A DNA stretch of 25,448 nucleotides from assembly GCA_040900505.1 (NCBI GenBank), contig JBBDYY010000021.1:1-25448 (forward strand). The letters are read 5' to 3'. Every line of letters begins with the position of its first letter. Positions within the stretch are counted from its first letter, which is position 1. The position numbers and the translations under genes are program-made. Below the pieces are notes generated by a model. It saw nothing but the letters and a program-made list of their open reading frames with translations, was not told the DNA's origin and did not search any database. Source of the stretch: Parcubacteria group bacterium. GTDB taxonomy: Bacteria > Patescibacteriota > Minisyncoccia > Phycocordibacterales > Zambryskibacteraceae. Shown here one piece after another: positions 1 to 18,852 of this stretch.

Positions 1-54
1 GTAGACTTCAAGCCCTTCACTATTTGCACGGCGGTTCGATTCCGCCCATCTCCA
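1..54 (+). ncRNA. ssrA: tmRNA, 3' end only (gene starts before the window)
   Basis: T-arm GGCGG-TTCGATT-CCGCC (30-46), then acceptor strand CATCTCC (47-53) and discriminator A54. It is preceded by GTAGAC...TTTGCAC with no tRNA anticodon or variable arm, which is the tmRNA 3' layout. CCA is not encoded here (next bases are CAG). Confidence 0.8.
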
Positions 55-98
55 CAGATAAAGCAGCCCCGCCTCGTGCGGGGTTTTGCTTTATCTGT
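54..98 (+). terminator. Long hairpin directly after tmRNA
   Basis: ACAGATAAAGCA (54-65) pairs with TGCTTTATCTGT (87-98). Inner stem GCCCCGC/GCGGGGT around the loop CTCGT. Confidence 0.65.
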
Positions 99-105
99 TA
101 GTAGA

Positions 106-221
106 GTCGGAATCGAACCGAGGAAGGGGTCGGGAAACCTGTCTGGTTTCCCGTGGAGGAAGGCAGGGCTTTGCCCGTCGGAAAACCGTGGGTTTCCGAG
201 GAGTGAGATATCCGCCCATCT
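106..221 (+). mobile_element. Structured mini-element, copy A: inverted tmRNA T-arm copy + conserved core + direct copy of tmRNA 3' end
   Basis: 108-120 is the exact reverse complement of 32-44. Core 122-203 is homologous to 18320-18418 (minus strand). 211-221 is identical to 41-51. Mobility is inferred, not shown. Confidence 0.6.
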
Positions 222-267
222 GGCGCTTTTTATGTTTCGCTCGTGATAACTCGTGACCGATGAACCC

Positions 268-301
268 TTCCGAGGTGTGAGATATCCGCCCATCTCCACC
301 A
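268..301 (+). repeat. Second displaced copy of the tmRNA 3' end, ending in CCA (att-like)
   Basis: 268-295 matches 194-221 at 27/28 nt. 285-299 is identical to 41-55 and continues to ...CCACCA (296-301). Confidence 0.85.
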
Positions 302-444
302 CATTCGCAGATGGCCCGCCAAAGCGCTTGCTTTATCTATATCAGTATATTGTAGTAGATTTGTTGCCCGAAGGAGAAATAATTATTGGCATGATATTTT
401 AACCAGGCTTCAATATCTATTTTCCAGCTTCTCACTGTAGTAAG

Positions 445-1395
445 ATGAGTGGGGACGTTCTTAACAATCCACTGGAGATTCTCATGTCTGTATCTATGAT
501 GCCGGCGAGAGAATCCTCGCCAAACCTTCTCTACAAAGCAGTGCTTGCCCTAATGGTCTTTGGACCACTCTTGGCAATATTACTGCTGCCATTCTTTTGG
601 CAAGATGTTTTCGTGAAGGAGGCTCTGATCCAGCTCCCCATATGGTATGTGATTACAGTCACTGCCATTACGGTAAGCTTCCACAGGGAGCTCACCCACG
701 GGTCTCTTGAGCTCAAGCCTATAGCCAAGTACCCAATGGTGGTTCTGGCTCTTCTTGCGCTCGAAGGAAGAGCGATTGATTGGTGCGCTAACCATCGAAA
801 GCACCATCACTACTCCGATAAAGAGGGTGACCCTCACTCGCCGAACCTTCATGGCGAGAGTATCTGGGGAATCATCAAGGGATGGGGTCACGGTCATGTG
901 ATGTGGCTCTTCTCCGCGGAGAAGCCAGACCACAAGCGCTACGTTCCAGATCTCTTGGAGGACCGGACGCTTAGAGCGCTCGATCGACTCTTCCCCCTCT
1001 GGGCGGTACTTACATTCCTCCTGCCGGGACTTAGCGCTTACGCCCTTCTTCCAACTTGGAAGACGTTCTGGGTGGGAGTCCTCTGGGGTGGAGTGGTCCG
1101 TGTCTTCCTGGTTCATCATATGACTTGGAGCATCAACTCCATTTGTCATCTCTGGGGTACTCGACCATTCCGATCGAGGGACAAAAGTGTCAATAACTTC
1201 TTCTTCGGCTACCTCGCCGCGGGAGAAGGCTGGCACAGAAACCACCATGCCTTCGCAAGGTCAGCAAGAATTGGCCTAAGATGGTGGGAATTCGACTGGG
1301 GCTGGATTGTCATTCGGATTCTTAATTTCTTCGGCTTGGTGAAGCGGTACGTAGTGCCAGACGCCTCACAAATCGAAGCGAAGCGGATCCGCTGA
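445..1395 (+). CDS. Membrane fatty acid desaturase, delta-9 acyl-CoA/acyl-lipid (OLE1/DesC-like), no cytochrome b5 fusion
   Basis: Three His boxes (HRELTH, HRKHH, HRNHH), plus SDKEGDPHSP, TWSINSICHLWG and GEGWH motifs and hydrophobic TM segments. True start could be 484 or 499. Confidence 0.92.
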   Translation: MSGDVLNNPLEILMSVSMMPARESSPNLLYKAVLALMVFGPLLAILLLPFFWQDVFVKEALIQLPIWYVITVTAITVSFHRELTHGSLELKPIAKYPMVVLALLALEGRAIDWCANHRKHHHYSDKEGDPHSPNLHGESIWGIIKGWGHGHVMWLFSAEKPDHKRYVPDLLEDRTLRALDRLFPLWAVLTFLLPGLSAYALLPTWKTFWVGVLWGGVVRVFLVHHMTWSINSICHLWGTRPFRSRDKSVNNFFFGYLAAGEGWHRNHHAFARSARIGLRWWEFDWGWIVIRILNFFGLVKRYVVPDASQIEAKRIR

Positions 1396-1398
1396 GCT

Positions 1399-1430
1399 AA
1401 AGCGCTCTCCTAGGAGAGCGCTTTTTTATT
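1399..1430. terminator. Bidirectional intrinsic terminator
   Basis: Perfect 26-bp palindrome AAAGCGCTCTCCTAGGAGAGCGCTTT (1399-1424) followed by a T tract, between convergent genes. Confidence 0.85.
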
Positions 1431-1466
1431 TATTCTCATATTTTTCTCCTTTGCATATTGTGATAG

Positions 1467-1922
1467 TTATCTCCTATCTATCTTTCTTGTAAGTTCCAAA
1501 AGTAATTCGTTTTGATTTTCCAGATGAGCAAGGATGGTTTCAATTTCTTTCTCTGCTTTCATGTTTACTTCAAAATCGGCCTGCGCGCGCTTCTCTGCAA
1601 ACTTTCCCTCCAGATTTTGCCCAACCATTATGAGGGGCAAAAGAATAAGCTGAATGATATTTGACGCGACTAACCAAATGAAGAAGGCTGGAGCTGGGTC
1701 AAAGCGGAGCGGAACAGGAGCATATATGTTCCAGAGCACCCAACCTATGGTCCATACGGCAAGCACAAAGAAGAAGCCCATGGTGCCCACTGCCCTGGTA
1801 ACCACAAGGGCGAACCTCTCAAGAGAAGAAAATTTGACCCTGGCCTCGTGCCGATGGTTCCGTAAGGGTTTCCTCCCTGCCTTAAGCTCATGGAGAGTTG
1901 AGGGCATATGTAAGTATTCCAT
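1467..1922 (-). CDS. DUF1003-family membrane protein
   Basis: Two TM helices with FDPAPAF...LLPLIMVGQN and a C-terminal coiled coil (RAQADFEVNMKAEKEI), as in DUF1003. Confidence 0.85.
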   Translation of the reverse strand: MEYLHMPSTLHELKAGRKPLRNHRHEARVKFSSLERFALVVTRAVGTMGFFFVLAVWTIGWVLWNIYAPVPLRFDPAPAFFIWLVASNIIQLILLPLIMVGQNLEGKFAEKRAQADFEVNMKAEKEIETILAHLENQNELLLELTRKIDRR

Positions 1923-1930
1923 TTCTACAT

Positions 1931-1965
1931 AGTAAAGAGTAAACAGTAGATAGTAAATAGTAAAT
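1931..1965. repeat. Five tandem heptamers AGTA(A/G)AN in a divergent promoter region
   Basis: AGTAAAG AGTAAAC AGTAGAT AGTAAAT AGTAAAT read directly from the sequence. Confidence 0.8.
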
Positions 1966-2503
1966 GGTGTATAGTATGGGCAATAACGAATTAGATTTGC
2001 CCAACCCTCGTACTAATCAGCGTATAGCCGCTAAAGAACTCCGCCTCATAGGCCCGAAAGGAGAGAACTTCGGAGTCCTCTCGCTTGAAGACGCCTTGAA
2101 GAAAGCTGCTGAGTTTGACCTGGACCTTATAGAAATTTCTCCTAACGCGAACCCCCCTGTGGCGAAGATTGCTGACCTTGGCAAATTTCTTTACGAAGAG
2201 AGCAAGAAGGAGAAGGCGGCAAAGATGAAGAGCCACTCCGTAGAGGTCAAAAGTGTGCAGGTAAAGCTCGGCACGGGGGACCACGATCTTGAGCTCAAAG
2301 CCAAGAAGACCTCCGAATGGCTTGCTGAGGGCCACCGTGTGAAGATAAACCTCTTCCTCCCCGGTAGAGCCAAGTATCTAGATGAGAAGTTCCTCAAGGC
2401 GCGTATAGAGCGTATGCTCAAGCTCGTAACCGTGCCCTACAAGGTAGCCGAGACCCCCAAGAAAAGTCCTAAGGGAATGACGGCTCTAATAGAGCGCGCC
2501 TAG
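1964..2503 (+). CDS. infC: Translation initiation factor IF-3
   Basis: RTNQRIAAKELRLIG...ALKKAAEFDLDLIEISPNANPPVAKIADLGKFLYE...VKINLFLPGR. Start uncertain (ATG 1964, ATG 1976 or TTG 1997). Confidence 0.95.
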   Translation: MVYSMGNNELDLPNPRTNQRIAAKELRLIGPKGENFGVLSLEDALKKAAEFDLDLIEISPNANPPVAKIADLGKFLYEESKKEKAAKMKSHSVEVKSVQVKLGTGDHDLELKAKKTSEWLAEGHRVKINLFLPGRAKYLDEKFLKARIERMLKLVTVPYKVAETPKKSPKGMTALIERA

Positions 2504-2548
2504 CTTTACAAAAGGGCTAAAATCCGTAAGATATAGACCCTAGCTTTT

Positions 2549-2740
2549 ATGGCCCAGAAAACTAATAAATCATATTCGAAACGCCTTAAGGTCACCAAAA
2601 GTGGCAAGATTTTGGCGCGGAAAACTGGTCAAAATCACTTCAATGCCAAGGAGAGAAACTCAGACAAGGGAGCCAAGGGCCGCAATACCGAATTTCATAT
2701 GACGAATAAAGAAAGAAGCCGTTTCCTCATAAACTTCTAG
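2549..2740 (+). CDS. rpmI: 50S ribosomal protein bL35
   Basis: KTNKSYSKRLKVTKSGKI...GQNHFNAK; lies between infC and rplT. Confidence 0.92.
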   Translation: MAQKTNKSYSKRLKVTKSGKILARKTGQNHFNAKERNSDKGAKGRNTEFHMTNKERSRFLINF

Positions 2741-2764
2741 TTCGATAAACTCACCACAAGTAAC
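2738..2764 (+). repeat. REP-like spacer motif TAGTTCGATAAACTCACCACAAGT
   Basis: Fills the whole rpmI-rplT spacer. Related motifs at 13065-13088, 14417-14450 and 21233-21283. Confidence 0.6.
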
Positions 2765-3109
2765 ATGACAAGAGTAAAGAAAGGCGTTAACGCCCTCAAA
2801 AACCGAAGAAACGTCTTAAAGCAAGTGAAGGGCTACCGCCACGGCCGAAGCACCAAGGAGCGCCAGGCAAACGAAGCCATTTTCCACGCGGGTACTTACG
2901 CCTTTGCCCACAGGAGGGACAAGAAGGGAGACTTCCGCCGCCTCTGGAATGTGCGCATGTCGGCTTCTCTTAAGGAAATGGGTCTCTCCTACTCCAAGTT
3001 CATAGGCATGCTCAAGAAGAAGGATGTGGCGCTCGACAGAAAGATTCTTGCTGGCCTTGCGGAGAACAACCCCGAAACATTTAAAAAAATTGTCGAAGCA
3101 GTTAAGTAA
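2765..3109 (+). CDS. rplT: 50S ribosomal protein bL20
   Basis: MTRVKKG...KGYRHGRS...YAFAHRRDKKGDFRRLWNVR...DRKILAGLA. Confidence 0.97.
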   Translation: MTRVKKGVNALKNRRNVLKQVKGYRHGRSTKERQANEAIFHAGTYAFAHRRDKKGDFRRLWNVRMSASLKEMGLSYSKFIGMLKKKDVALDRKILAGLAENNPETFKKIVEAVK

Positions 3110-3119
3110 CTTCTTTAAT

Positions 3120-3503
3120 TTAATTATAAAGGCCCCTCAATTCTTCAAGCAATTCATCCAAAGATTTATTTATATTCTTCTTTGTCGTCTCAATATCTTT
3201 CAAGGTATACCCGTTATCTACCCCATCTGCAAGATGCGAAGCTATCATCTTAATATCGTATACTAACTCGGCAATTTTTTCTTGAGGCTCTGCAGTCCTA
3301 TCATGGCTCTCTGCGCGTCTCCGAGCATCATCCGCCGAATGTTGAGCGCTATCCGCCGACTGTCGTGCGCCTGACTCAATTTCTGAAGCAGAAGCTCTCA
3401 ATCCTGCCGCCGCACCACGATTGTATTGGCTTGCGTCGGCCATTGCTTCTGCCTTTGCGGAGTCTTCTACCCACCCATCTGGTTTTTCTTGATATTCTTT
3501 CAT
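3120..3503 (-). CDS. Hypothetical soluble helical protein
   Basis: 127-aa ORF with a TATATT-N6-ATG promoter/start arrangement. No family recognised. Confidence 0.7.
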   Translation of the reverse strand: MKEYQEKPDGWVEDSAKAEAMADASQYNRGAAAGLRASASEIESGARQSADSAQHSADDARRRAESHDRTAEPQEKIAELVYDIKMIASHLADGVDNGYTLKDIETTKKNINKSLDELLEELRGLYN

Positions 3504-3509
3504 ATATCC

Positions 3510-3536
3510 AATATACCCCCCCCACTAGAATTACAA
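3510..3536 (-). promoter_or_regulatory. Putative leaderless promoter with a G8 tract in the spacer
   Basis: Minus strand TTGTAA (3531-3536), 15-nt spacer including G8 (3516-3523), TATATT (3510-3515), 6 nt, ATG. Confidence 0.45.
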
Positions 3537-3590
3537 GCCCTCTAGACACAACCAAAAATATTTAAACATATTTAAAAACATTGAATCTAC

Positions 3591-3619
3591 TAATAACATA
3601 CGATATATCGTATGTTATG
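3591..3619. repeat. 29-bp inverted repeat, left copy, containing a perfect 26-bp palindrome (operator-like)
   Basis: TAATAACATACGATATATCGTATGTTATG; palindrome spans 3593-3618. Confidence 0.9.
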
Positions 3620-3622
3620 TAA

Positions 3623-4054
3623 TTAGCTGTTTTTGAGCTTTTCTTTGTAGATTGACTTATCCAAAGATCGCCATCTCTTGCCTCCTACCTTAGGCGGCAT
3701 AATTCCTCCAATAAATAAAATTTTCTCGATTAGTTCCCAGATATCTTTTTTGCCCAGAGCTTCTTTAATGATACGAGTATATCTCCCTTTTTCGTAATTT
3801 ACCGACATGCGCTCTGTTGTAGACGGGCTCATAAGGAGCGCTTCAGCTATCATGTGGGATGATACTCCTTTTGAAAGCATGGCAATAACGGCCAACCTCT
3901 TGGCGAACATCACTCTTTCGGTTCTGGAGAAGAATTCATTAAAAACTTGCCTGGTTTTATGATTATCAAAGGAGCGCTCGAACGATCTGACCAATTCGAG
4001 CTGGAGTTCCTCAAGCTGTTTCATCTTCAAGCCCCTCTTTGAAATATGTGGCAT
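3623..4054 (-). CDS. TrpR/YerC-YecD-like helix-turn-helix regulator
   Basis: FFSRTERVMFAKRLAVIAMLSKGVSSHMIAEALLMSPSTTERMS fits the Trp-repressor-family HTH pattern (xxTxxERxxxxxRLxxxxxLxxGxSxxxIxxxLxxSxxTxxR). Confidence 0.8.
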   Translation of the reverse strand: MPHISKRGLKMKQLEELQLELVRSFERSFDNHKTRQVFNEFFSRTERVMFAKRLAVIAMLSKGVSSHMIAEALLMSPSTTERMSVNYEKGRYTRIIKEALGKKDIWELIEKILFIGGIMPPKVGGKRWRSLDKSIYKEKLKNS

Positions 4055-4080
4055 AACGTACGATATATCGTATGTTATTA
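4052..4080. repeat. 29-bp inverted repeat, right copy; overlaps the start codon and predicted TSS of the TrpR-like gene
   Basis: Reverse complement is TAATAACATACGATATATCGTACGTTATG, 28/29 identical to 3591-3619. Confidence 0.9.
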
Positions 4081-4088
4081 CTATAGCA
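4080..4088 (-). promoter_or_regulatory. Extended -10 promoter of the TrpR-like gene
   Basis: Minus strand TGcTATAGT, abutting the palindrome. Confidence 0.6.
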
Positions 4089-4120
4089 TAGAAGGAGGTG
4101 GCGTTGGCGTAGGGGTATTA

Positions 4121-5500
4121 TTAAACCTCCAGTTTGTAAGTCTTCCCCCTCTCAGGCACTATAGCTTCTACTCCAAGTTCATCATGTAAGCGCTGAGCAA
4201 GAAATATGGAGGAGGCTGTTTCTCCCATGGCTATAAAAACTTTTTTTAAAGTGTCCTGGCTTGCAGAAACGAACTCCACTAAATTATTTGAATCCTTGTG
4301 CGCCGAGTATCCGCCAATTTGGATAACTTCTGCCCTCACATTAATCTTCGCCCCATGTATATCCACTGTCTTCATACCTTCGGAAATCTGCCTGCCTAAG
4401 GTGCCGGCCGCCTGGTAGCCGACAAAAAGGATGGTGGCATTTGGGTCTGGAAGATAATGAGCTTCGTGTCCTACTATCCTCCCTCCTGTAGACATGCCAG
4501 ACCCCGCAAGGATAATCTTCCCCCCTTGGGTTCTGTTGATCTCTTCTGCATCCTTGACTTGAACAGTTTCAAGAAGTTTGGGAAATTTAAAAATATCATC
4601 ATGCTTTGCCTCTTCCCGCACTGAGTCCTTGTAATAGGCAGAGGTCTTCTCATAAATCTCGGTAACTTTTATTGATAGAGGAGAATCTAAAAAGACTGGA
4701 ACATTCCTCACCCCCTCCTCATTAAAAATTTTATTCAATTCATATAAAACAATTTGCGTTCTTTCTAAGGAAAATACTGGTATAAGAAGAGTCCTGCCCT
4801 CTTTAATCACGCGGTGAATAATTTCTTTAAACTTTCTGTCCCTCTCCTCTGTCCCCTCATGATTGCGATCTCCATATACAGAATCCATCAATAAGTATGC
4901 TAGTCCTGTAACCACTTCTGTATCCCTCAAGAGAGGCGAGGGTGAGTTGCCGAGATCACCGGTAAAGAGCATGGATTTGTCAGAAGGGAAGATGAATTTG
5001 TACATGGCTGAGCCCAGAATATGGCCAGCATCATAGAGTTCTACGCTAAAGTCGGTAAAGCTTTTTGCCTCATGATACGGGATGGTTTGCCAGAGCCTGA
5101 GGCTCTCTTCAACATCGTGGTTGGTATAAATCGGCAAGGTGCCGTCCCGCCTTGCATTGCTGTCGCTAATCTTCGCTATGTCCATCATCATTAATTCCGC
5201 AATGTCTTTGGTCTCTCTAGTGGAATATATGATTCCTTTAAAACCGTCATGCACAAGCTTCGGAATCCTCCCTATATGATCTATGTGTGCGTGAGTGACG
5301 AAGAGGGCGTCGATGGAAAATGGATCATACGGAAAATCTTTATGATTCTCCTCTTCCGAACCATGCACTCCTTGGAGAAGTCCGCAATCGACTAAAATCT
5401 TTTTAGTCGTCCCGAATTCCTGTGAGGGACCTATCTCGAGCAGAAAGTTGGCGCCAGTAACTGTTCCCGCCCCACCCCAGCATGTAAGATTAACTAGCAT
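4121..5500 (-). CDS. MBL-fold beta-CASP RNA-processing ribonuclease (YSH1/CPSF73-like)
   Basis: LVDCG, THAHIDHIG, DAGHILGSA, FTGDLG, SGMSTGG and GYSAHKD motifs. Confidence 0.92.
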   Translation of the reverse strand: MLVNLTCWGGAGTVTGANFLLEIGPSQEFGTTKKILVDCGLLQGVHGSEEENHKDFPYDPFSIDALFVTHAHIDHIGRIPKLVHDGFKGIIYSTRETKDIAELMMMDIAKISDSNARRDGTLPIYTNHDVEESLRLWQTIPYHEAKSFTDFSVELYDAGHILGSAMYKFIFPSDKSMLFTGDLGNSPSPLLRDTEVVTGLAYLLMDSVYGDRNHEGTEERDRKFKEIIHRVIKEGRTLLIPVFSLERTQIVLYELNKIFNEEGVRNVPVFLDSPLSIKVTEIYEKTSAYYKDSVREEAKHDDIFKFPKLLETVQVKDAEEINRTQGGKIILAGSGMSTGGRIVGHEAHYLPDPNATILFVGYQAAGTLGRQISEGMKTVDIHGAKINVRAEVIQIGGYSAHKDSNNLVEFVSASQDTLKKVFIAMGETASSIFLAQRLHDELGVEAIVPERGKTYKLEV

Positions 5501-5891
5501 AAAATATTTTTTTCGTTCCCCAGATGCCGGCTAATGTTCCTCCCACTATGTCAGCGATGAGATCTGTCACGGTATCTAGCCCGTATCCCTCTGTAGATTG
5601 GGTGAGACCATACACGTATTCAAATATTTCCCACCCAACTCCCACTACCACTGTAACCAATACTGCTGTAAGAAACGCGCTCGTTTGACTTGGTCTTTGT
5701 TTGTTCCAGAGTCCTGAATCCCAAAATACCCAAAGAGCGAAAAGGCCGACAAAAACTCCGCCTATAAGGTGAGCCAAAGTGTCATACCAACCAATACTCC
5801 AGTAAAGATAGAAGAAGGATCCGACTAAATGTAGAATAAATAAACCAATAAGGACCGCGAAACTGGTAAAGAGAAGGGAAAAATTCTGCAT
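5490..5891 (-). CDS. Small four-TM membrane protein (DUF2238/VanZ-like), with intramembrane H, ExxE and DxxxD residues
   Basis: WYDTLAHLIGG, VGVGWEIFEY and DTVTDLIAD motifs. Overlaps the start of the beta-CASP gene by 11 bp. Confidence 0.7.
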   Translation of the reverse strand: MQNFSLLFTSFAVLIGLFILHLVGSFFYLYWSIGWYDTLAHLIGGVFVGLFALWVFWDSGLWNKQRPSQTSAFLTAVLVTVVVGVGWEIFEYVYGLTQSTEGYGLDTVTDLIADIVGGTLAGIWGTKKIFYAS

Positions 5892-5897
5892 TTCAAA

Positions 5898-5906
5898 ATT
5901 ATATCA
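5898..5906 (-). promoter_or_regulatory. Extended -10, leaderless arrangement
   Basis: TGaTATAAT, 6 nt, then ATG (5891). Confidence 0.7.
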
Positions 5907-5914
5907 TTGATGCT

Positions 5915-5937
5915 AAAAATCCCGCTTACGCGGGATT
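5915..5937 (-). terminator. Intrinsic terminator after the small RNA
   Basis: Minus strand AATCCCGC-GTAA-GCGGGATT followed by TTT. Confidence 0.75.
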
Positions 5938-5944
5938 CTTAGTG

Positions 5945-6067
5945 AGGGTTATTCTGGTATACCCTAGTTTCAGAACTAAGGTGGGTTCTCTCAGCTGTAA
6001 CCCCAAGGGGTTAGGCGATTCGAGATCCCTGAAAAATCTTTAGCTAGATAATACCTCAAATAACCCT
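5945..6067 (-). ncRNA. ssrS: Probable miniature 6S RNA (123 nt)
   Basis: Rod closed by AGGGTTATT/AATAACCCT, GGTAT/ATACC and CTAG/CTAG. Central bubble about 14 x 15 nt. GGGATCTC...GAGAGAACCCACCT resembles Firmicutes 6S GGGAGCCC...GAGGGCACCCACCU (recalled from memory). Apical TAACCCC-TT-GGGGTTA. Own TATAAT (6074-6079) 6 nt upstream and a terminator downstream. Confidence 0.62.
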
Positions 6068-6170
6068 GTATACATTATATTCCTTTTTTCCAAAAAACCT
6101 GTTGATATCTACTCGACGAACACCTGAAAACATTTTGTATTTGGCCTTATGGTGTATGCTCCGTTTTCCT

Positions 6171-6773: not shown

Positions 6774-6808
6774 AAAATTAGAATATGAGTATAATCAAAC
6801 TTTAGGCA

Positions 6809-6841
6809 AAAAGAAAGCGCGCACTAACGTACGCGCTTTTT
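6809..6841 (-). terminator. Intrinsic terminator overlapping the stop codon of the 119-aa orphan
   Basis: Minus strand AAAGCGCGTAC-GTTA-GTGCGCGCTTT followed by CTTTTT. Confidence 0.7.
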
Positions 6842-12259: not shown

Positions 12260-12263
12260 ATGT

Positions 12264-12449
12264 TTACCAGGAGCTCTTCTTAATACCAGGAATCTGGCCG
12301 ATGTTAGCAAGTTCTCTGAAGCAAATACGACAAAGGTCGAAGTCTCTCATGTAGCCGCGCTTTCTCCCACAGCGGAAACATCGAGAAGTAGCCCTGGTGG
12401 AGAATTTGGGCTTCTTTTTGGACCTTGCTATTACGGATGTTTTTGCCAT
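12264..12449 (-). CDS. rpsN: 30S ribosomal protein uS14, zinc-binding (type Z)
   Basis: RCFRCGR...LCRICFRE...IPGIKKSSW. Confidence 0.97.
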
Positions 12450-12482
12450 GAAAATAAAAAGCTCTCTCTGAGCTAAGAAATC

Positions 12483-12511
12483 AGCTTATCAAGCTCAGGA
12501 TGCATTGTCAA
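12483..12511 (-). promoter_or_regulatory. Internal sigma70 promoter upstream of rpsN
   Basis: TTGACA (12506-12511), N17, TGa-TAAGCT (12483-12488). Confidence 0.65.
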
Positions 12512-12530
12512 TTAAGGATTTTCCGCCCTT

Positions 12531-13064
12531 TTACTTCTTGAAGGGGAAGCCCATATGGGTGAGGAAATCGACCACTTCCGCCTTGCTCTTAGCTGTAGTA
12601 ACAACAGTGATAGCCAGGCCGAAGACATCCTTAAGCTCTTCATCTGCAGTTTCTGGGAAAACTGAGTGCTCCTTGATGCCTAGGGTGTAATTGCCCATTT
12701 CGTCTGCGGAAGTAGGAGATACGCCTCTGAAGTCCTTAGTCCGAGGGAGAGCAATGTGAACAAGCCTTTCTAGGAAGTCATACATGCGGGTACCGCGAAG
12801 AGTTACTTGGTAACCTACTATGTCCCCCTGCCTGGATTTAAAGTTGGCTATAGCTACCTTCGCGGCGCGAGGAGATGCCTTCTGGCCTGTTATCTTCGCG
12901 AGACGGTCTTCCACTACCTTCATCTTGTTCTTATCCTTAAATGATCCCACACCTGAAGAAACGACAACCTTAAGTATTCTCGGAGACTGCATGGCGTTCT
13001 TATAGGAGTGATCCTTCTTAAGGGCTTCGAACGCTTTATTTTGTTTTGTTTTTAAAGTTTCCAT
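12531..13064 (-). CDS. rplE: 50S ribosomal protein uL5
   Basis: PRILKVVVSSGVG...ITGQK...VTLRG...ALPRTKDFRG...GNYTLGIKEH. Confidence 0.98.
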   Translation of the reverse strand: METLKTKQNKAFEALKKDHSYKNAMQSPRILKVVVSSGVGSFKDKNKMKVVEDRLAKITGQKASPRAAKVAIANFKSRQGDIVGYQVTLRGTRMYDFLERLVHIALPRTKDFRGVSPTSADEMGNYTLGIKEHSVFPETADEELKDVFGLAITVVTTAKSKAEVVDFLTHMGFPFKK

Positions 13065-13088
13065 ACTTGTAGTGAATTTATTGAACTA

Positions 13089-13340
13089 TTATTTCTTCAC
13101 TGCTTTCTTAGGAGTGGCCTTCTTTTCCCCCTTGCGCACGTTGGAAACGTGGATAGGCAGTGCCATGTCTACTACCTCAAACTTGGCTCCCTTGGCACGA
13201 GCTTTAACTCGCATCTTTCTTACATTGATGCCTTCCACTACCACCTTGCCCTCACTTGGAAGGGCTCGCAAAATCTTCCCAGTCTTACCCTTGTCCTTGC
13301 CTGCCAATATGTATACTGTGTCTCCTTTCTTTACGTGCAT
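13089..13340 (-). CDS. rplX: 50S ribosomal protein uL24 (short, 83 aa)
   Basis: KKGDTVYILAGKDKGKTG KOW motif, VVVEGIN, PIHVSNV. Confidence 0.96.
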   Translation of the reverse strand: MHVKKGDTVYILAGKDKGKTGKILRALPSEGKVVVEGINVRKMRVKARAKGAKFEVVDMALPIHVSNVRKGEKKATPKKAVKK

Positions 13341-13350
13341 AGTATTAAAA

Positions 13351-13722
13351 TTAAACTACCTCGGGCGCTAGTGAAATAATCTTCTGAAATCCCTTTTCTC
13401 CAATTTCCCGAGGGATGGGACCGAAGACGCGGCCAGCCATGGGCTCCTTCTTTGCAGTATCAAGAATCACCACTGCATTCTCGTCGAAGCGGACGTATGA
13501 GCCATCCTTTCGGCGAAATGGGGCTCGTTGGCGCACCACCACTGCATAAAGCACATCCTTCTTCTTAACCTGCTTTCTTGGCTCAGCCTTCTGCACAGAG
13601 AGCACAACGAGGTCGCCGATCCTGGCATAACGCTTCTTGGAGCTCCCGAGTACCTTAAAGACACGTCCTATCTTGGCTCCTGTGTTGTCTGCTATTTCTA
13701 CTATGCTTTGAGGTTGAATCAT
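13351..13722 (-). CDS. rplN: 50S ribosomal protein uL14
   Basis: MIQPQSIVEIADNTGAK...RFDENAVV...RVFGPI...ISLAPEVV. Confidence 0.98.
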   Translation of the reverse strand: MIQPQSIVEIADNTGAKIGRVFKVLGSSKKRYARIGDLVVLSVQKAEPRKQVKKKDVLYAVVVRQRAPFRRKDGSYVRFDENAVVILDTAKKEPMAGRVFGPIPREIGEKGFQKIISLAPEVV

Positions 13723-13737
13723 CGTAAGTTTGGGCGT

Positions 13738-13992
13738 TTATACTATCATAAATCTCTTATCCTTGGACATCGGCCTTGTCTCTACAATGTCTACCTTGTC
13801 CCCTATTTTCTTCGTGTTGCCGGCATCATGAGCTTTGAACTTCTTCTTGTGCTTCATAAACTTTCCATACTTCGGATGCTTAACGTATCTCTCCACAAGA
13901 ACGACAACAGTATCCTTCATCTTGTCGGAGACTACTGTGCCGGAGAAAACTTTTTTTCCGCTGTTTGACGGTTTGTTTGTATTTTTTTCCAT
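13738..13992 (-). CDS. rpsQ: 30S ribosomal protein uS17
   Basis: [14 protein letters not shown]...HPKYGK...KAHD...[16 protein letters not shown]. Confidence 0.98.
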
Positions 13993-13996
13993 AAAA

Positions 13997-14416
13997 TTAT
14001 GTGCGGGCTACGATCTTGGTCTTTACTGGTAGTTTTGTACCCGCCTTTCTCAATGCTTCCTTGGCTACTGCATCTGTCACTCCATCTACTTCAAAAAGCA
14101 TGCGTCCCGCCTTCACAGGAGCCACGTATCCTTCGAGGTCGCCCTTGCCTTTACCGAGCTTCACTTCTGCGGGCTTGGTGGTGTATGGCATGTCTGGGAA
14201 GATGCGGATCCAGAGCCGTCCAGACTTACCTACGGAGCGCGAAAGAACCTTTCTTGCTGCTTCTATTTGGTTACTTTTGATGCGAGCTGGGGCCATAGCC
14301 TTAAGACCGAAGGAGCCGAAGGCAACAGTCACTCCCCTAGTGGCAGGGCCCACCTTCAAAGGATTCTTCCTCATGGTGTGCCACTTGCGGTATTTAACTT
14401 TCTTAGGGAATAACAT
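13997..14416 (-). CDS. rplP: 50S ribosomal protein uL16
   Basis: [13 protein letters not shown]...QIEAARK...WIRIFPD...[14 protein letters not shown]. Followed by rpsQ after a 4-bp gap, so no rpmC here. Confidence 0.98.
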
Positions 14417-14450
14417 AGTAGTGATTATTTATAGTGAGCTTGTCGAACTA
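14417..14450 (-). repeat. REP-like spacer motif TAGTTCGACAAGCTCACTA...TCACTACT
   Basis: Fills the rpsC-rplP spacer and begins with the rpsC stop codon. Confidence 0.6.
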
Positions 14451-15119
14451 TTTTTGAGCTTCCTTCTCGAAGATTTCTCCTCGGTAAATCCAAATCTTAA
14501 CTCCAATGGCGCCGTAAGGCATGATAGCCTTGGTAGAACAATAGTCCACATCCGCCCTGAAGGTCTGAAGTGGGATGCGTCCGAGCTTCCTGTCTTCTGT
14601 TCTACTCATGGTTGCTCCTCCCAAGCGTCCTCCGAGGGAAATACGCACCCCTTGTACATCGCGGTTGGCCATGACCTTCTCAAGCATCTGCTTCATAACT
14701 CTGCGGAAAGGAAGTCTCTTCTCAAGACCTTCCACTACCATCTGAGCAACGATGGCGGCGTTGGCTTCTGGAGACTTTACCTCCTTCACATCAAGCTTTA
14801 CCTCCACCTTCTCGCCAAGGAGTGAGTGCTTCTTCAAAAGCTTTATCAAATCTTCTCGAAGCTTCTGAGCGCCGTCACCTTGTCTGCCGATGATCATGCC
14901 AGGACGAGAGGTGGAAATGATTACGCGGAGAGCCTTCTCACTTCTCTCTATTTCTACATCTGCAATATAAAAACCCTTAAGCTTCTTGTCCAAATACTTT
15001 CTTATCAAAACGTCTCCTCGGAGATATTCAGAAAACTTTCCCTTAGGAGAAAACCACCTGCTCTTCCAATCGCGGAGGATACCAAGTCTATGTGAATATG
15101 GATGGACTGTATGTGTCAT
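14448..15119 (-). CDS. rpsC: 30S ribosomal protein uS3
   Basis: MTHTVHPYSHRLG...SRPGMIIGRQG...GRLGG...GRIPLQTFRADVDY...GVKIWIYRGE. Confidence 0.98.
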   Translation of the reverse strand: MTHTVHPYSHRLGILRDWKSRWFSPKGKFSEYLRGDVLIRKYLDKKLKGFYIADVEIERSEKALRVIISTSRPGMIIGRQGDGAQKLREDLIKLLKKHSLLGEKVEVKLDVKEVKSPEANAAIVAQMVVEGLEKRLPFRRVMKQMLEKVMANRDVQGVRISLGGRLGGATMSRTEDRKLGRIPLQTFRADVDYCSTKAIMPYGAIGVKIWIYRGEIFEKEAQK

Positions 15120-15124
15120 GATAA

Positions 15125-15529
15125 TTAGCTTTTTGCTTCTGGCTTCTTGCTTCTAGCTTTTGAATATTTAGAGAGGGGCTTTATCTTCTTTGACTTGGAG
15201 GAGCTCTCAGAAACTGTTATAGAAACTTTGCTGGTGCGCTTCCTCATAGGGAAGGCGCGGCCATGTGCCATAGGAAGTCGACGGTAAAGAATTTTACCAG
15301 CATCCACTCGGATCTCCTTCACAATGAGCTCATCGCTTAGTGATAGGTTCTTGGCATTGGCAACTGCTGAAGAAAGTAGCTTTTTAAGAGGAAGGCCAGC
15401 ACGCTTGGGAACGAAGGTTAGGAGATCCATGGCGTGAGTAACAGACTTCCCTCTTACGAGATTTGCCACAACTCTCACCTTTCGAGGAGACTGGCGATAA
15501 TTATTGAGCTGTGCTGTTGCTTCTGCCAT
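15125..15529 (-). CDS. rplV: 50S ribosomal protein uL22 with a basic C-terminal tail
   Basis: RQSPRKVRVVANLVRGK...SAVANA...PMAHGRAFPMRKRTSKV. Confidence 0.97.
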   Translation of the reverse strand: MAEATAQLNNYRQSPRKVRVVANLVRGKSVTHAMDLLTFVPKRAGLPLKKLLSSAVANAKNLSLSDELIVKEIRVDAGKILYRRLPMAHGRAFPMRKRTSKVSITVSESSSKSKKIKPLSKYSKARSKKPEAKS

Positions 15530-15532
15530 GGA

Positions 15533-15874
15533 TTATTTTTTTGCTGCGTCGGCGCCCTTAACTGCCTTGGCGGCGGAGATCTCAGCTTCCTTCTTCTTCA
15601 TTTCAAGCTCCTTCTGCATCTTACCGCCGTGCTTATTGAACTTACGAGTGAGAGAGAACTCTCCGAGTCTGTGCCCCACCATGTCTTCTGTTACGAAAAC
15701 CTCAATGTGATCCTTACCGTTGTGAACTCCGAAGGTGAAACCAACCATTTCTGGAGCAATTTGAGAGGCCCTGGCCCAAGTCTTAATAGTCCCGGTCTCG
15801 CCAGGCTTTTTGCCCTCGATTTTCTTTAAAACTCGAGGATCTACGTATGGTCCTTTTAAGGAGGATCGGGTCAT
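15533..15874 (-). CDS. rpsS: 30S ribosomal protein uS19 with a C-terminal extension
   Basis: MTRSSLKGPYVD...KTWARAS...GVHNGK...MVGHRLGEFSLTR. Confidence 0.98.
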   Translation of the reverse strand: MTRSSLKGPYVDPRVLKKIEGKKPGETGTIKTWARASQIAPEMVGFTFGVHNGKDHIEVFVTEDMVGHRLGEFSLTRKFNKHGGKMQKELEMKKKEAEISAAKAVKGADAAKK

Positions 15875-15907
15875 GGGGAATAAAAAAGCTCCGAGAGAGC
15901 TCGAAAC

Positions 15908-15936
15908 ATAGTATAGAAATTAGGGCCCGAAGTCAA
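15908..15936 (-). promoter_or_regulatory. Sigma70 promoter for the rpsS-led half operon
   Basis: TTGACT (15931-15936), N17, TACTAT (15908-15913). Confidence 0.7.
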
Positions 15937-15967
15937 ACAAAGAGGGCCAAACTTTCGTTTGGCCCTC
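15935..15967 (-). terminator. Intrinsic terminator after the 196-aa orphan
   Basis: 11-bp stem GAGGGCCAAAC/GTTTGGCCCTC, followed by TTTGTTT on the minus strand. Confidence 0.75.
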
Positions 15968-15972
15968 GGTAA

Positions 15973-16563
15973 TTACTTCGTCGCTCTTCTCAGGTCAGGG
16001 GTGATGTGCAAACCCTCCCATGAAAAGAAAATCGTGCTGTGCGGAACCTTGTCCACGTGACGTAGGAGGATGAGGGACAGGGAGCCATCCGAATCCGGAT
16101 TCTCCCAGGCGTGGGCGTGCTTCCACGTTCCCTGGTGAAGCGAACTCAGGGCCGTCCTGACTTCCCCGGGCAACTGTAGGCCACTTTCTTCCCGTACATA
16201 CGTGAGAGTAATCTCCATTCCTGCATCCTGCCAAGGGCGACGATACAAATCGTAGAGATTGAAACGAATCTTTCCCAACGAACTGTGTATGCCCCCCAAG
16301 GCGACTCGTCTTTCATTCGCCATCACCTGAATACCGTTTCCTCCGGCGCCGTAGCCCTGGGGCTTGAGACTTTCGTCCAAAGCATAGAGAGCTCGGAGAA
16401 AGCTGGGAACACTATCCAGATAGAACTTGAGAATGAATGCGTCCCGACGTCGTAGCGTAGAGATCTTTTGACGACTCGGATCCCTTTCCTGGGTATGTGC
16501 TTCGGGGTCGAAACTCCTTCTCTGCGTGGCTATCTGCACTCTTCCTCCCGAGCTTTCGCTCAA
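15973..16563 (-). CDS. Hypothetical protein (orphan); start uncertain (TTG)
   Basis: 196-aa ORF bounded by its own promoter and terminator. No family recognised. Confidence 0.6.
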   Translation of the reverse strand: MSESSGGRVQIATQRRSFDPEAHTQERDPSRQKISTLRRRDAFILKFYLDSVPSFLRALYALDESLKPQGYGAGGNGIQVMANERRVALGGIHSSLGKIRFNLYDLYRRPWQDAGMEITLTYVREESGLQLPGEVRTALSSLHQGTWKHAHAWENPDSDGSLSLILLRHVDKVPHSTIFFSWEGLHITPDLRRATK

Positions 16564-16590
16564 ACTTGTGAATAGAACTTATCCTTCGCT

Positions 16591-16619
16591 AAGATAGCAT
16601 TAAATTTGAGCTAAGTCAA
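16591..16619 (-). promoter_or_regulatory. Sigma70 promoter of the orphan gene
   Basis: TTGACT (16614-16619), N17, TGc-TATCTT (16591-16596). Confidence 0.65.
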
Positions 16620-16622
16620 GTA

Positions 16623-16652
16623 CAAAAAAGGGCCCAATTGGGCCCTTTTTTG
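16623..16652. terminator. Bidirectional terminator
   Basis: Perfect 30-bp palindrome CAAAAAAGGGCCCAATTGGGCCCTTTTTTG. Confidence 0.85.
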
Positions 16653-16683
16653 ATTCTCGGTATTATCTAGCTAAATACGAGAA

Positions 16684-17373
16684 TTAGTGCTTGCCACTCA
16701 TCTCACCGCGAAGTCGCTCAATGAAGCGAGCCGCTGCCTCCTGACCACCAAGGCCGAAGGAAAGTCCGAGTGCTAAAGCTACTGCAATCACAATGCCAGT
16801 AAAGAGTGTCTGGCTAAATGCGGCTGCGATGCCTAGCTGGGAAAGCGCAACAAGAATAGCGAATATCCAGATAGCCCATTTGGTAAGGCTTCCTGCGAAG
16901 TGCGCAGAGCGGAGATCCGCCGTGCGAGCTGCAGTTACCACTACTCTCTCCGCAACATCAGCAAGAACACCAGCTACCAAGATCACGAGTGCTGCTACGA
17001 GTACTCGAGGAAGGTAAGCTATAACTACCTGCTGGAGGAAGATATTAACCTGTGTTAAGCCGAGAACATCGAAGGCTGCCACAAGGAAGACAACGATGAT
17101 AAACCACTTAACCAATCCGCCTATAAATGCTCCTGAGTCGAGTTGAATGCCACCTCGGCGAAGGAATCCTTCGAAACCTGCGCGTCGGAGAGCTTCATCA
17201 ACCTTAAGAGAGCGGAACACTTGCCATATAGCACGTCCTACTAATGAGGCAATGAGCCATCCAAGGATTAGGATGACAATCGCAATGACAAGATTCGGAA
17301 CGAAATTCACTATCCCTAACCAGAGATTCTGGAAGGAAAGAGTTAGAACTTCTGTCCAGTTATTGAGAATCAT
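16684..17373 (-). CDS. Conserved TM-helix repeat protein (CmpX / MscS N-terminal-like)
   Basis: Two repeats of the FxPNLxxAxxILxxGWxxA / YLPRVLVAALVIL pattern, and C-terminal ALGLSFGLGGQEAAARF. Confidence 0.8.
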   Translation of the reverse strand: MILNNWTEVLTLSFQNLWLGIVNFVPNLVIAIVILILGWLIASLVGRAIWQVFRSLKVDEALRRAGFEGFLRRGGIQLDSGAFIGGLVKWFIIVVFLVAAFDVLGLTQVNIFLQQVVIAYLPRVLVAALVILVAGVLADVAERVVVTAARTADLRSAHFAGSLTKWAIWIFAILVALSQLGIAAAFSQTLFTGIVIAVALALGLSFGLGGQEAAARFIERLRGEMSGKH

Positions 17374-17502
17374 ATATTCTTAACGGAATATTGTGCCTGA
17401 GGCACTTACTTTTAATTACCACTCTAAAAGGGGTATGTACCTATTATACGCCTTAAATTAAAGAAAAAACAAATGCTGTGGATAGATGGGCCTAGGAAAC
17501 GG

Positions 17503-18114
17503 CTATATTCCTAGCTTATTTAGAACGGTCTTGTGTGGGTAGTCTAGAATATCGCGTACAAGCTTGTCATAGGCGCCTAATCTATAGTTGAAATCAGGTG
17601 TTTCGAAGGAGGCGTAGCGTATTTCCTTGCCTATCTTCGCCTCGATGTTAGATATGGTAGAGACTAAGTTGGCCTTCTTTATCCTGTCTCCTACAACCAA
17701 AAGATCCACTCTAGAATCCGGGTCGTGTAAGAAGAAACCAGATAGAATAATAAGCTTCATGTTGCCAGCGCGTGAAATGCGCTTTGCAATATCTTTCTCC
17801 GTAAGAGGTCGAGCATCAATAAGAAAATTTGAAAGGGGTTCTATGTATGAATACTCGGGGTCTAAAGTAAAACCGCGAACTTGCATAACCTTAGGTTTGC
17901 CCCGCTTGCGCTTAACCACGAAGCGGACTCTACCCTTCCTGCAAACAAGACCTGCCTTCATAAGAATACCTACTTCTTTCTTGACCGTTCTGGGCTTCTC
18001 CTTAACCCGTATAGCTATTTCCTCTAGAGAAAAGACTTGATTGGGGTTAAATACGAAGAGGCGCATGATCTTGACCTTGGCCTCTCCGCCGAATATATGG
18101 CCCACTGATTTCAT
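17503..18114 (-). CDS. Winged-HTH protein fused to a degenerate Pol-beta-like nucleotidyltransferase-fold domain
   Basis: N-terminal KIMRLFVFNPNQVFSLEEIA...KKEVGILMKAGLV (wHTH). C-terminal IILSGFF...DSRVDLLVVGD (MNT-like). Confidence 0.7.
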   Translation of the reverse strand: MKSVGHIFGGEAKVKIMRLFVFNPNQVFSLEEIAIRVKEKPRTVKKEVGILMKAGLVCRKGRVRFVVKRKRGKPKVMQVRGFTLDPEYSYIEPLSNFLIDARPLTEKDIAKRISRAGNMKLIILSGFFLHDPDSRVDLLVVGDRIKKANLVSTISNIEAKIGKEIRYASFETPDFNYRLGAYDKLVRDILDYPHKTVLNKLGI

Positions 18115-18175
18115 AACGGCATTCTACACCAATATACCCCAAGCGCCACTAGTGACTAGAAAGGGCTGGTAGCAA

Positions 18176-18276
18176 AAAACCAGTGGATTTATCGTGCGTC
18201 TCGGAGCGCGACGGCGCGAGAGTCAGGAAGATTTCTAGTAAGAAATACTTCCGTGCACAGGAAATCCACTGGTTTT
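18176..18276. repeat. 15-bp inverted repeat enclosing a 71-nt structured insert (terminator-like stem with an element in its loop)
   Basis: AAAACCAGTGGATTT (18176-18190) pairs with AAATCCACTGGTTTT (18262-18276). Inner hairpins GGAAG-ATTTCT/AGAAAT-A-CTTCC and TCTCG/CGAGA. Confidence 0.7.
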
Positions 18277-18280
18277 GAGC

Positions 18281-18440
18281 TTATTTGAGGGTAACTTTCC
18301 CACCAGCCGTCGTCGCAAGCTCCTCCTTAAGAACCCTCGGTTCTCAACGAAAAACACTCTTCCGAGTGTTTTTCTGCTTTCCTCCGCGGGAGACCAGATG
18401 TTCTCCCGACCCCTCTCCAAGCCGGCGAGTAACTCTGAAG
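18281..18440 (-). mobile_element. Structured mini-element, copy B: inverted rplL 3'-end copy + conserved core + recoded direct copy of rplL 3' end
   Basis: 18419-18440 is an inverted copy of 18445-18470. Core 18320-18418 is homologous to 122-203. 18281-18307 encodes AGGKVTLK* in synonymous codons. Mobility is inferred. Confidence 0.65.
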
Positions 18441-18441
18441 A

Positions 18442-18852
18442 TTACTTCAAAGTTACTTTACCGCCGGCTTCCTCGATTCTCTTCTTCAATTCCTCTGCTT
18501 CCTCCTTCTTCATGCCTGCTTTAAGCATGCTGGGAGCTGCATCAACAAGATCCTTTGCTTCCTTAAGACCGAGGGCAAGAACCTCTTTCACTACCTTGAT
18601 GACTGCAATCTTATTTGCACCACCGTCAGTGAGTTCTACATCTGCTGTAGCCTTTTCCTCAGCTGCTTCACCTGCTGCTGCGGGACCGGCTGCTGCGACT
18701 GCTGTAGCTGATACTCCGAACTTGTTTTCAAACACCTTTACAAGCTCGTTAAGATCCAAGACTGACATCTTCTCTATCTCAGCTACAATCTTTTCAAACT
18801 TTGCAGGAACTGCAGTTTCTGCAGCTTCTACGTTTGTTGTTTCGTCTGCCAT
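18442..18852 (-). CDS. rplL: 50S ribosomal protein bL12 (L7/L12)
   Basis: [21 protein letters not shown]...[22 protein letters not shown]...AGGKVTLK. Confidence 0.98.

Follow-up and report, generated by a model that had tools for sequence, protein, structure and literature searches.

Why are two unrelated genes on one bacterial contig, those for transfer-messenger RNA (tmRNA) and for ribosomal protein L7/L12 (rplL), both followed by an inverted copy of their own 3′ end, then by the same folded core, and then by a direct copy of that end? The stretch of DNA that raises this question, hereafter the window, consists of 25,448 nucleotides (nt) from a Parcubacteria group bacterium (GenBank assembly GCA_040900505.1, contig JBBDYY010000021.1). 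It is the entire contig C21 of a source genome (G000) of 369 kb in 46 contigs with an estimated completeness of 79.5%. We call the working gene end X, its inverted copy X′ and its direct, spare copy X*; G-numbers denote the genomes compared, C a contig and L a locus. The core belongs to a real multi-copy, non-autonomous structured element family, which is apparently undescribed. With moderate confidence, we hold that both loci are members of one family of protein-less, non-autonomous integrative mini-elements of about 130 to 200 nt, which would enter by a Campbell-type single exchange and bring a gene end of their own.

Two gene ends with one layout

The order of X, X′, core and X* that the initial annotation described for both loci, and the distances of 170 and 161 nt that it gave between X and X*, were borne out by the sequence, by Rfam and Pfam matches and by a covariance model of the core (R1, built from 37 copies). 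On the plus strand, the contig start cuts the tmRNA gene, the 3′ end of which occupies positions 1–57 (Rfam tmRNA, model positions 316–374, E 3.6e-11). Here, X is the 3′ half of the T-arm together with the 3′ strand of the acceptor stem (about 32–55), and it ends in CCACA, so that the CCA is incompletely encoded. A trailer follows (58–96), with a fold that gives a bidirectional terminator-like hairpin (stem 65–85 plus a T run). X′ (97–121) is an inverted copy of the T-loop and the 3′ strand of the T-stem, with 13 nt exact at 108–120 against 32–44 and a degenerate extension at 97–107. Core A (122–199) comprises a GGGGTC motif, hairpin P1 (131–139/145–153), a purine-rich joiner (154–165), a variable hairpin P2 (166–176) and hairpin P3 (178–187/191–199) with a bulged A, and R1 matches it at 124–208 (85 nt, 91.9 bits). 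The 11-nt linker behind it, GGAGTGAGATA (200–210), is a T-loop look-alike with TC changed to GA that is conserved in tRNA- and tmRNA-type copies and forms, with the first bases of X*, a pseudo-T-arm.

The tmRNA locus carries more than one spare end. The first, X*1 (211–221), is a direct copy of 11 nt exact that is truncated after ...CATCT; the same 11-nt block, which stands at 41–51 in the gene, recurs here at a distance of 170 and again at 285–295. The latter is part of X*2 (285–301), the most distal copy of the tmRNA 3′ end, which has an encoded CCA and is probably the oldest displaced host end; empty tmRNA sites in G019, G020, G006 and G021 end in CCA as well. Between the two lies a relic of one or more older units (222–284), in which 268–284 is a remnant of the 3′ end of a core like core A (type A) with its linker; 268–295 is identical to 194–221 at 27 of 28 positions. 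Within this relic, 243–266 is what remains of a core from another family, type B, namely its 3′ end motif; type B shows the same X′/X* design at tmRNA and tRNA genes. The type-B core contains GGGGTCGCGAG and ends in TGTGACCGATGAAC; the window keeps only its 3′ end, and the core itself was seen at the tmRNA of G010, G014 and G017 (L087, L089 and L091) and in G157 (L058–L062).

The second locus lies on the minus strand behind the rplL open reading frame (ORF; 18442–18852, Pfam PF00542/PF16320). X consists of the last eight codons and the stop codon (18468–18442), and X′ (18441–18417) is an imperfect 25-nt inverted copy of it, stop codon included; the two fold into a long hairpin in which the pairing covers the last codons and the stop. 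Core B (18415–18327) has P1 at 18408–18387, P2 at about 18374–18349, with a sequence that differs from that in core A, and P3 at 18347–18327, and it matches R1 at 18415–18318 with 63.9 bits. It is followed by a 19-nt linker, GGAGGAGCTTGCGACGACG (18326–18308), which does not vary among the rplL-type copies of G000, G004 and G010, and by X* (18307–18281), a second copy of the last eight codons and the stop. X* encodes the peptide of the real gene end, AGGKVTLK*; the two differ at seven codons, all of them synonymously, and their stops are 161 nt apart. We read X* as the displaced older gene end. The long hairpin and T run that the fold gives after X* (18278–18172) are probably the rplL operon terminator, and a terminator stands at the equivalent position of unoccupied rplL sites in relatives.

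A folded core shared across the Patescibacteria

A search of the source genome and its relatives with the covariance model, as the initial annotation had proposed, revealed a multi-copy family. Of 151 genomes sampled from the order, 66 contain the core, in as many as 16 copies each; a sample of 150 taken elsewhere in the phylum has it in 11. BLAST alone found it in 40 of 101 relatives, and it occurs in 15 of the 22 genomes of the genus, a tally that, like the BLAST one, takes in one unpublished genome (G018). An exact core motif of 27 or more nt appears in at least 119 stretches of a species-representative genome collection; the records that name a lineage are all from Patescibacteria, or candidate phyla radiation (CPR), including Paceibacterota, Parcubacteria and metagenome-assembled genomes labelled "Saccharibacteria". 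Two motif scans of 2.9 million viral contigs did not find it. The source genome itself holds a third full copy (G000:C14).

Two core relics were also observed in the source genome. One, at G000:C12:1682–1741 on the minus strand, is truncated and lies behind a stray copy of a tRNA-His 3′ end, and the other, at G000:C28:9405–9428 on the minus strand, is a P3 fragment that abuts a tRNA-Thr gene of the other strand. Partial BLAST hits in G013 had the appearance of cores split around cargo, a possibility that was rejected when they proved to be separate full copies with a divergent P1.

The stem covariation first suspected from the two window copies holds across the family. In an alignment of 62 copies, fitted to the model's own structure, 97% of the stem cells are paired and double-sided changes are found in 11 of the 18 pairs (129 cells). 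None of 500 shuffles reached the observed values, no slid register came close, and an independent MAFFT alignment gave the same picture of the fold. P1 and P3 have the same shape, namely six pairs, a bulged A and then one or two further pairs, while the middle hairpin P2, already reported to differ between cores A and B, is variable throughout and missing in short forms. G.T pairs outnumber A.C pairs in the stems (15 vs. 4), which indicates that the folded strand is the one that shares its sense with the tRNA.

This fold does not correspond to a catalogued family. Rfam 15 gave no match at gathering score in the window and none for the core up to an E-value of 10 in positions 1–400; there was also no match in the loci of five relatives, and neither an intron family nor a self-cleaving ribozyme family, such as the R2-type HDV-like, hammerhead or twister class, was matched. 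A full-text literature search found no description of the core element. These results agree with the earlier view of a non-autonomous structured element for which no family can be named.

Targets and flanks

Most targets are RNA genes. In the order, 29 of 61 copies lie behind a tRNA or tmRNA gene on the same strand, 6 to 81 nt away and representing 13 amino-acid identities, and among further loci, 53 of 80 lie behind a tRNA gene, with 16 identities. Protein-coding targets, whose identity was confirmed by Pfam, include the 3′ ends of rplL, rpsI (S9) and rpmG (L33), where the element is in sense, and the 5′ ends of lepA, typA, a family-4 glycosyltransferase (GT4) gene and an RNase H gene, where it is antisense. 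The statement that the element sits in sense orientation behind normally highly expressed genes is therefore correct for the window but not in general, as copies in relatives are antisense at gene 5′ ends. Without exception, the working part of the gene, X, is on the 5′ side of the element's strand, and the duplicated region contains a very conserved motif near the gene terminus. A subgroup in G155 and G166 has flanking hairpins of its own and no tRNA gene nearby.

The flanks match their own target. Across 59 copies, the median lengths of the exact inverted and direct flank matches are 11 and 11 nt, compared with 6 and 7 nt when flanks are taken from other loci, which supports the earlier claim that the ends change with each target. 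The direct repeats are 11 to 46 nt long, and the left core flank ends differently in the tRNA, rplL, S9 and GTPase types. The linker resembles the sequence that its target has left of the junction, apart from one to three changed bases, and is conserved within a target class; for instance, S9-type linkers have CAT instead of CAA or CAG, and L33-type linkers have TTG or TGG instead of AAA. The motif GCGACGACGG is common to rplL-type and typA-type copies, and the lepA type carries the variant GCGACGATGG. X′ spans the junction and matches the unchanged version of the target. The idea that X′ and the start of X* are terminal inverted repeats was discarded, as it fails at rplL and in most tRNA-type copies, where the linker breaks the pairing.

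No recurrent neighbour gene was found in about 140 loci. Clustering of the surrounding genes returned host synteny, such as rpoA-rplQ-rplM-rpsI and similar groups, together with spurious ORFs that run over the core.

Delimiting the insert

Three arrangements of insert and host could produce this layout. In the first, the unit from X through the trailer, X′ and the core to the linker is inserted and X* is the old host end; in the second, X′, core and X* lie behind an untouched gene; and in the third, the flanks are copied from the target. The last of these corresponds to the initial proposal that the flanks are rebuilt from the host at each insertion, and it does not agree with the protein-coding targets. 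In 12 clean cases, for which the best in-frame X* was picked and five decayed cases were excluded (a selection that favours good matches), X and X* show 49 synonymous vs. 8 non-synonymous codon differences, with typA, counted separately, at 7 vs. 1. Six of the eight non-synonymous changes lie beside the junction and are recurrent, namely Gln to His in S9 and Lys to Leu or Trp in L33. Most changes gathered by a dead local copy would alter the amino acid; the bias thus suggests that X and X* evolved as working gene ends in different lineages and that neither is a fresh local copy.

The inverted copy provides a second line of evidence. The longest match of X′ is to X rather than to X* in 100 of 112 copies (medians 13 vs. 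7 nt), and at synonymous sites, X′ follows X in both rplL and typA. When the rplL loci of G000 and G004 are compared, X and X′ have changed together, and X differs at only 1 of 27 positions while the 21 nt upstream differ at 6. The trailer with its terminator likewise appears to travel with the element: a homologous trailer and terminator remain with X′ and the core in G008 and G021, and in the favoured model, the trailer at 58–96 would be part of the element.

The order of events can be followed in relatives. In G021, a newer 1.4-kb insertion (L081:1–1500, equivalent to G021:C1:112330–113829) lies between the tmRNA gene and an older unit of terminator, X′ and core, and in G008 that unit adjoins the tmRNA gene directly. 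This position indicates that the new DNA entered inside the gene end and brought its own end and terminator. At the start of the insertion are a tmRNA end of its own, a terminator and a conserved hairpin motif shared with G014; it contains no recognisable enzyme ORF. The tmRNA locus of G014 has tandem units, each with its own terminator, and in the lepA and typA cases, the element side holds the gene start and a promoter-like stretch. From these sequence comparisons, we consider it about twice as probable that X is the element-borne end as that the element lies behind an untouched gene. The incomplete CCA of X in the window is no proof that X is foreign, because an encoded CCA is missing from several unoccupied tmRNA genes of the genus as well.

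Presence, absence and serial entry

Empty sites in relatives, which the initial annotation recommended looking for, were found at both loci. The tmRNA site is occupied in G000 and G008 but not in G019, G020 and G006, whose tmRNA 3′ ends are identical to theirs, and the rplL site is occupied in three (G000, G004 and G010) of the 18 genomes with a readable rplL 3′ end. The same tRNA-Ile gene is followed by a long-form core in G010 and by a short-form core in G011. Serial piles and truncated relics occur, as at 222–301 in the window, and imply repeated entry at one site.

The window is present only in its source sample, as contigs, and no RNA run contains it. In those contigs, a single joint was seen near the tmRNA locus, from 55 to 247 with a side of 21 nt, and it is unreliable. 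Elsewhere in the window, one contig of the source run leaves out 1125 bases of the ribosomal protein gene cluster by linking 14453 directly to 15579; this joint has a depth of 17.5 of about 25 and a side of 30, and it may stem from a related organism in the sample.

Candidate enzymes

Gene families were counted in the 151 genomes of the order, among which 14 have at least five core copies, and in a panel of five high-copy genomes with 9 to 16 copies; since these genomes are related, the co-occurrence counts are not independent. In the high-copy panel, TnpB (zinc-ribbon PF07282) was found in none of the five genomes, the IS110 DEDD recombinase, for which PF01548 alone was searched, exceeded the cut-off in none, and serine recombinases were present in two. 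Reverse transcriptase (RT) genes (RVT_1) show no association with the core (26 of 66 core-positive vs. 36 of 85 core-negative genomes, and 3 of the 14 with at least five copies), a count that doubles as a control for a general richness in mobile DNA. Two of the routes suggested initially, RT template switching and an IS110-like bridge RNA, thus find no support in these counts.

Phage_integrase-family genes occur in 147 of the 151 genomes, nearly always as exactly one gene, even where there are 9 to 16 core copies. This gene, of about 310 to 330 amino acids, presumably encodes an Xer-type recombinase; the Phage_integrase-family search of the order sample found no dedicated integrase. Two other families co-occur weakly with the core. 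Y1_Tnp (HUH) genes of about 220 to 260 amino acids are enriched in core-positive genomes (49/66 vs. 42/85) and are present in 13 of the 14 genomes with at least five copies, while 17 core-bearing genomes have none. Small GIY-YIG genes are found in 126 of the 151 genomes, including 60 of 66 core-positive vs. 66 of 85 core-negative ones and all five of the high-copy panel.

Small stand-alone GIY-YIG genes of 80 to 120 amino acids were also observed at tRNA 3′ or 5′ ends beside cores in G173 (L240 on C28 and L241 on C13). They carry duplicated tRNA ends of their own and look like a parallel class of gene-end elements.

Proposed mechanism

Considering the anatomy of the loci, we propose that the element would carry its own replacement X, that is, the last (or first) 11 to 50 nt of a conserved gene together with a terminator, or with a promoter in the 5′-end cases. 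Next would come X′, complementary to the target across the junction, then the conserved core with two bulged hairpins and an optional third, and then the short linker that imitates the target left of the junction with one to three bases changed. Entry would occur by a Campbell-type single exchange at a fixed point near the gene terminus; the gene would be kept intact by the element's X, and the host's old end would be pushed downstream as X*. In this account, lineages of the same core have specialised on particular targets, including many tRNAs, tmRNA, the 3′ ends of rplL, rpsI and rpmG, and the 5′ ends of lepA, typA, glycosyltransferase and RNase H genes.

In the free form, which could be circular or cut within X, the linker and X would fold back on X′. 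The resulting hairpin would reproduce the target almost perfectly as a duplex, apart from a small mismatch next to the exchange point, and a trans-acting enzyme would probably read it together with the core hairpins, on single-stranded DNA or on RNA. Going further, and only tentatively, the core could be the scaffold of a programmable, nucleic-acid-guided integration system in which X′ and the target-mimicking hairpin set the address. The chemistry would then be left to a small enzyme encoded outside the element, or to a housekeeping one such as the single Xer-type recombinase, and changes of X, X′ and linker would redirect the 85-nt core to the end of whichever conserved gene they match.

What the sequences show is the anatomy, the family with its target range and covariation, the coding-type divergence of X and X* and the differences in occupancy among congeners; the element-borne side, the single exchange, the folded free form and the enzyme are inferred. 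Several observations weigh against this account. None of the Logan assembler contigs of the source sample yielded a free form, a junction or an empty-site joint, and the gene-family searches of core-bearing genomes identified no enzyme. The HUH/RAYT enzyme suggested by the initial annotation accords with the enrichment of Y1 genes across the order, but the link is weak and fails within the genus, where Y1 genes occur in 9 of 15 core-positive vs. 2 of 7 core-negative genomes and G006 has five of them and no core. Cores persist in several near-complete genomes that have no Y1, small GIY-YIG or RT gene (G181), and G109 lacks both Y1 and GIY-YIG genes. The Y1 gene of the source genome is, moreover, flanked and interrupted in frame by a perfect 19-nt palindrome of its own, with five copies in the genome. 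The arguments for X rather than X* as the element-borne end are indirect, and the terminator after X in G008 resembles those at empty sites. At tRNA targets, X, X′ and X* all match the host, so that an element-borne X would need conspecific donors or gene conversion. Finally, some copies are without X′ and X*. In one of them (G013:C3, L034:4700–4920), the core lies directly between tRNA-Cys and the next tRNA gene, and it is possibly co-transcribed as a spacer between them.

The Y1 gene just mentioned is IS200-like or RAYT-like, encodes 232 amino acids and lies outside the window (G000:C22:6348–7044, minus strand; L114:747–1445). Its homologue in G155 has, at the protein level, a comparable repeated in-frame peptide motif at matching places.

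Alternative explanations

The strongest competitor to an integrative mini-element, though in our view an unlikely one, is homing. A trans-acting nuclease, for which a small GIY-YIG protein or a guided nuclease would be candidates, would cut the naive gene end, and repair would copy X, X′, core and linker from the occupied allele, with the gene body and X* as homology arms. Homing predicts a donor-type X and a host-type X*, as observed, and synonymous recoding of X would shield the occupied allele. Small GIY-YIG genes in all of the high-copy genomes, and beside cores with duplicated tRNA ends in G173, also accord with it. Nevertheless, their association with the core across the order is weak, and G007 and G109 have cores and no small GIY-YIG gene. 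A nuclease with only a catalytic domain could not by itself account for dozens of unrelated targets, and at tRNA targets, where X does not differ from the naive sequence, occupation would not protect an allele from cutting. Homing also leaves the conserved folded core without a role.

It is very unlikely, for the reasons given for the insert, that the core alone is the mobile unit and that RT template switching, an HUH enzyme or a bridge-RNA-like enzyme makes X′ and X* as fresh local copies of the target. Such copying could account for X, X′ and X* matching the local host at tRNA targets, even where the T stems of congeners differ (G010 vs. G011), for duplications that at times include the trailer and terminator at about 90% identity (G157), and for the enrichment of Y1 genes. 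It does not account for protein-coding targets in which X and X* differ at up to seven or eight codons with nearly no amino-acid change, for an X′ that follows X and not X*, or for linker motifs beside X* that are conserved within a target lineage; the enzyme counts for RT, IS110 and TnpB also speak against it.

No better placed, to our minds, is a structured RNA that serves the host, whether a 3′ trailer or untranslated-region module, a small RNA or a stabiliser, which would pair back on its transcript and have been multiplied by duplication and ordinary recombination. The initial annotation named such a module as a possibility, and some features point that way: the rplL element lies between stop codon and terminator and is probably co-transcribed, the folded strand is the sense strand, purine-rich GGAGGA stretches lie between the hairpins, and one copy forms the spacer between two tRNA genes. 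A host module nevertheless fits poorly with the antisense copies at the 5′ ends of lepA, typA, GT4 and RNase H genes, with the terminator that separates tRNA or tmRNA and element in most copies, and with varying presence among congeners, relics and tandem piles. Pairing of X′ with the T-arm would, in addition, misfold the tRNA.

Least credible of all is the view that the loci are attL/attR scars of larger integrase-bearing islands or prophages, since, in spite of gene-end direct repeats, gene-end replacement and serial piles that are classic tyrosine-integrase traits, the same compact form, free of cargo and of any recurrent neighbour gene, is seen at more than 140 loci, nearly every genome has a single Phage_integrase-family gene, the viral contigs lack the core motif, and double-stranded arm sites would not need hairpins that covary.

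Comparison with known systems

Tyrosine-integrase islands and prophages target tRNA, tmRNA and gene ends; for phage 21 and e14, the site is icd, to which they bring a 3′ end recoded at synonymous positions. The mini-element resembles them in its insertion at the T-loop or 3′ part of tRNA and tmRNA genes or at a protein-gene end, in supplying a replacement end, in the displacement of the old end as a direct repeat, in its serial piles and in the synonymous differences between the ends. As in such insertions, a repeated gene end flanks the insert and the gene stays whole, in the window as in relatives, and X and X* diverge in the manner of coding sequence. In contrast to these elements, it has no integrase or any other gene, is only 130 to 200 nt long and contains the internal complement X′; one folded core is common to lineages with more than 25 unrelated targets, and there is one tyrosine recombinase gene per genome.

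Folded single-strand sites are known from attC, recognised by IntI, and from the attP(+) hairpin of CTX phage, recognised by XerCD, which mimic one fixed partner (attI or dif). They share with the mini-element a variable sequence with a conserved hairpin shape, small mismatches beside the exchange point, small units with few or no genes and a chromosomal enzyme that acts in trans. The mini-element hairpin, however, copies a different target in each lineage, and the element inserts into gene ends and replaces them. Unlike integron cassettes, its copies are dispersed at gene ends rather than arrayed at one platform, and no extra recombinase of the IntI type was found.

The IS200/IS605 insertion sequences, PATEs and REP/REPIN-RAYT systems are, like the mini-element, short, folded, strand-specific and ORF-less, with bulged hairpins near both ends. 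IS200/IS605 elements also recognise their cleavage sites by pairing to an internal guide, and Y1 genes are enriched in mini-element carriers. Their guides, however, are 4 to 5 nt long for one fixed target word, as opposed to a lineage-specific complement of 11 to 25 nt; they carry no gene ends and make no long direct repeats, and the Y1 link fails in the genus. In the bridge (seek) RNAs of IS110/IS1111, a structured non-coding part likewise matches both target strands at the exchange point and the target is programmable, but the mini-element guides are much longer, there is no donor-binding loop, the gene end is rebuilt, and no match to PF01548 exceeded the cut-off in the high-copy panel. The omega-RNAs of TnpB/IscB and CRISPR guide scaffolds work with an associated RuvC nuclease; the one searched for, TnpB by its zinc ribbon (PF07282), was found in none of the five high-copy genomes.

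Free-standing homing endonuclease cassettes, the mobile ORFs of fungal mitochondria and the collaborative homing of ORF-less introns provide a new in-frame gene end, leave the old end as a remnant, spread among alleles of conserved genes and may rely on a nuclease encoded elsewhere. The mini-element differs in that it has no ORF, a conserved folded core, mainly RNA-gene targets and no nuclease tied to the core. Group II introns and other retroelements are set apart by the absence of an RT association and of an Rfam intron match and by the small core of about 85 nt, and the miniature inverted-repeat elements (MITEs) of DDE transposons by arms that, in the mini-element, differ by target and by repeats of 11 to 46 nt that have no fixed length. 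By analogy, the closest counterparts would be Campbell-type integrative elements in behaviour and, in form, attC, CTX attP and the hairpin-plus-guide ends of IS200/IS605.

Implications

For annotation, these inserts create spare fragments of tRNA, tmRNA and gene ends that could be mistaken for the attachment scars of islands. They also break assemblies, whose graphs collapse at the core.

How a single core comes to be directed at dozens of different targets in the ultrasmall bacteria of the CPR/Patescibacteria is not accounted for by any enzyme or known family. That one folded core has more than 25 unrelated addresses suggests that base pairing, and not the sequence preference of a protein, selects the target. 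Base-pairing-targeted systems such as group II introns, CRISPR transposons and the bridge RNAs of IS110 have become tools, and the mini-element would be far smaller. If the programmable reading is true, it would represent a new mobile-element class and, at the same time, a natural DNA-insertion tool of very compact size. If the mini-elements are what we propose, genomes of about 0.4 to 1.2 Mb, which offer little room for parasites, would carry up to 16 copies of a gene-free element that survives by landing in the most conserved sequences, such as tRNA T-arms, tmRNA, the tails of ribosomal proteins and the P-loops of GTPases, and by repairing the damage.

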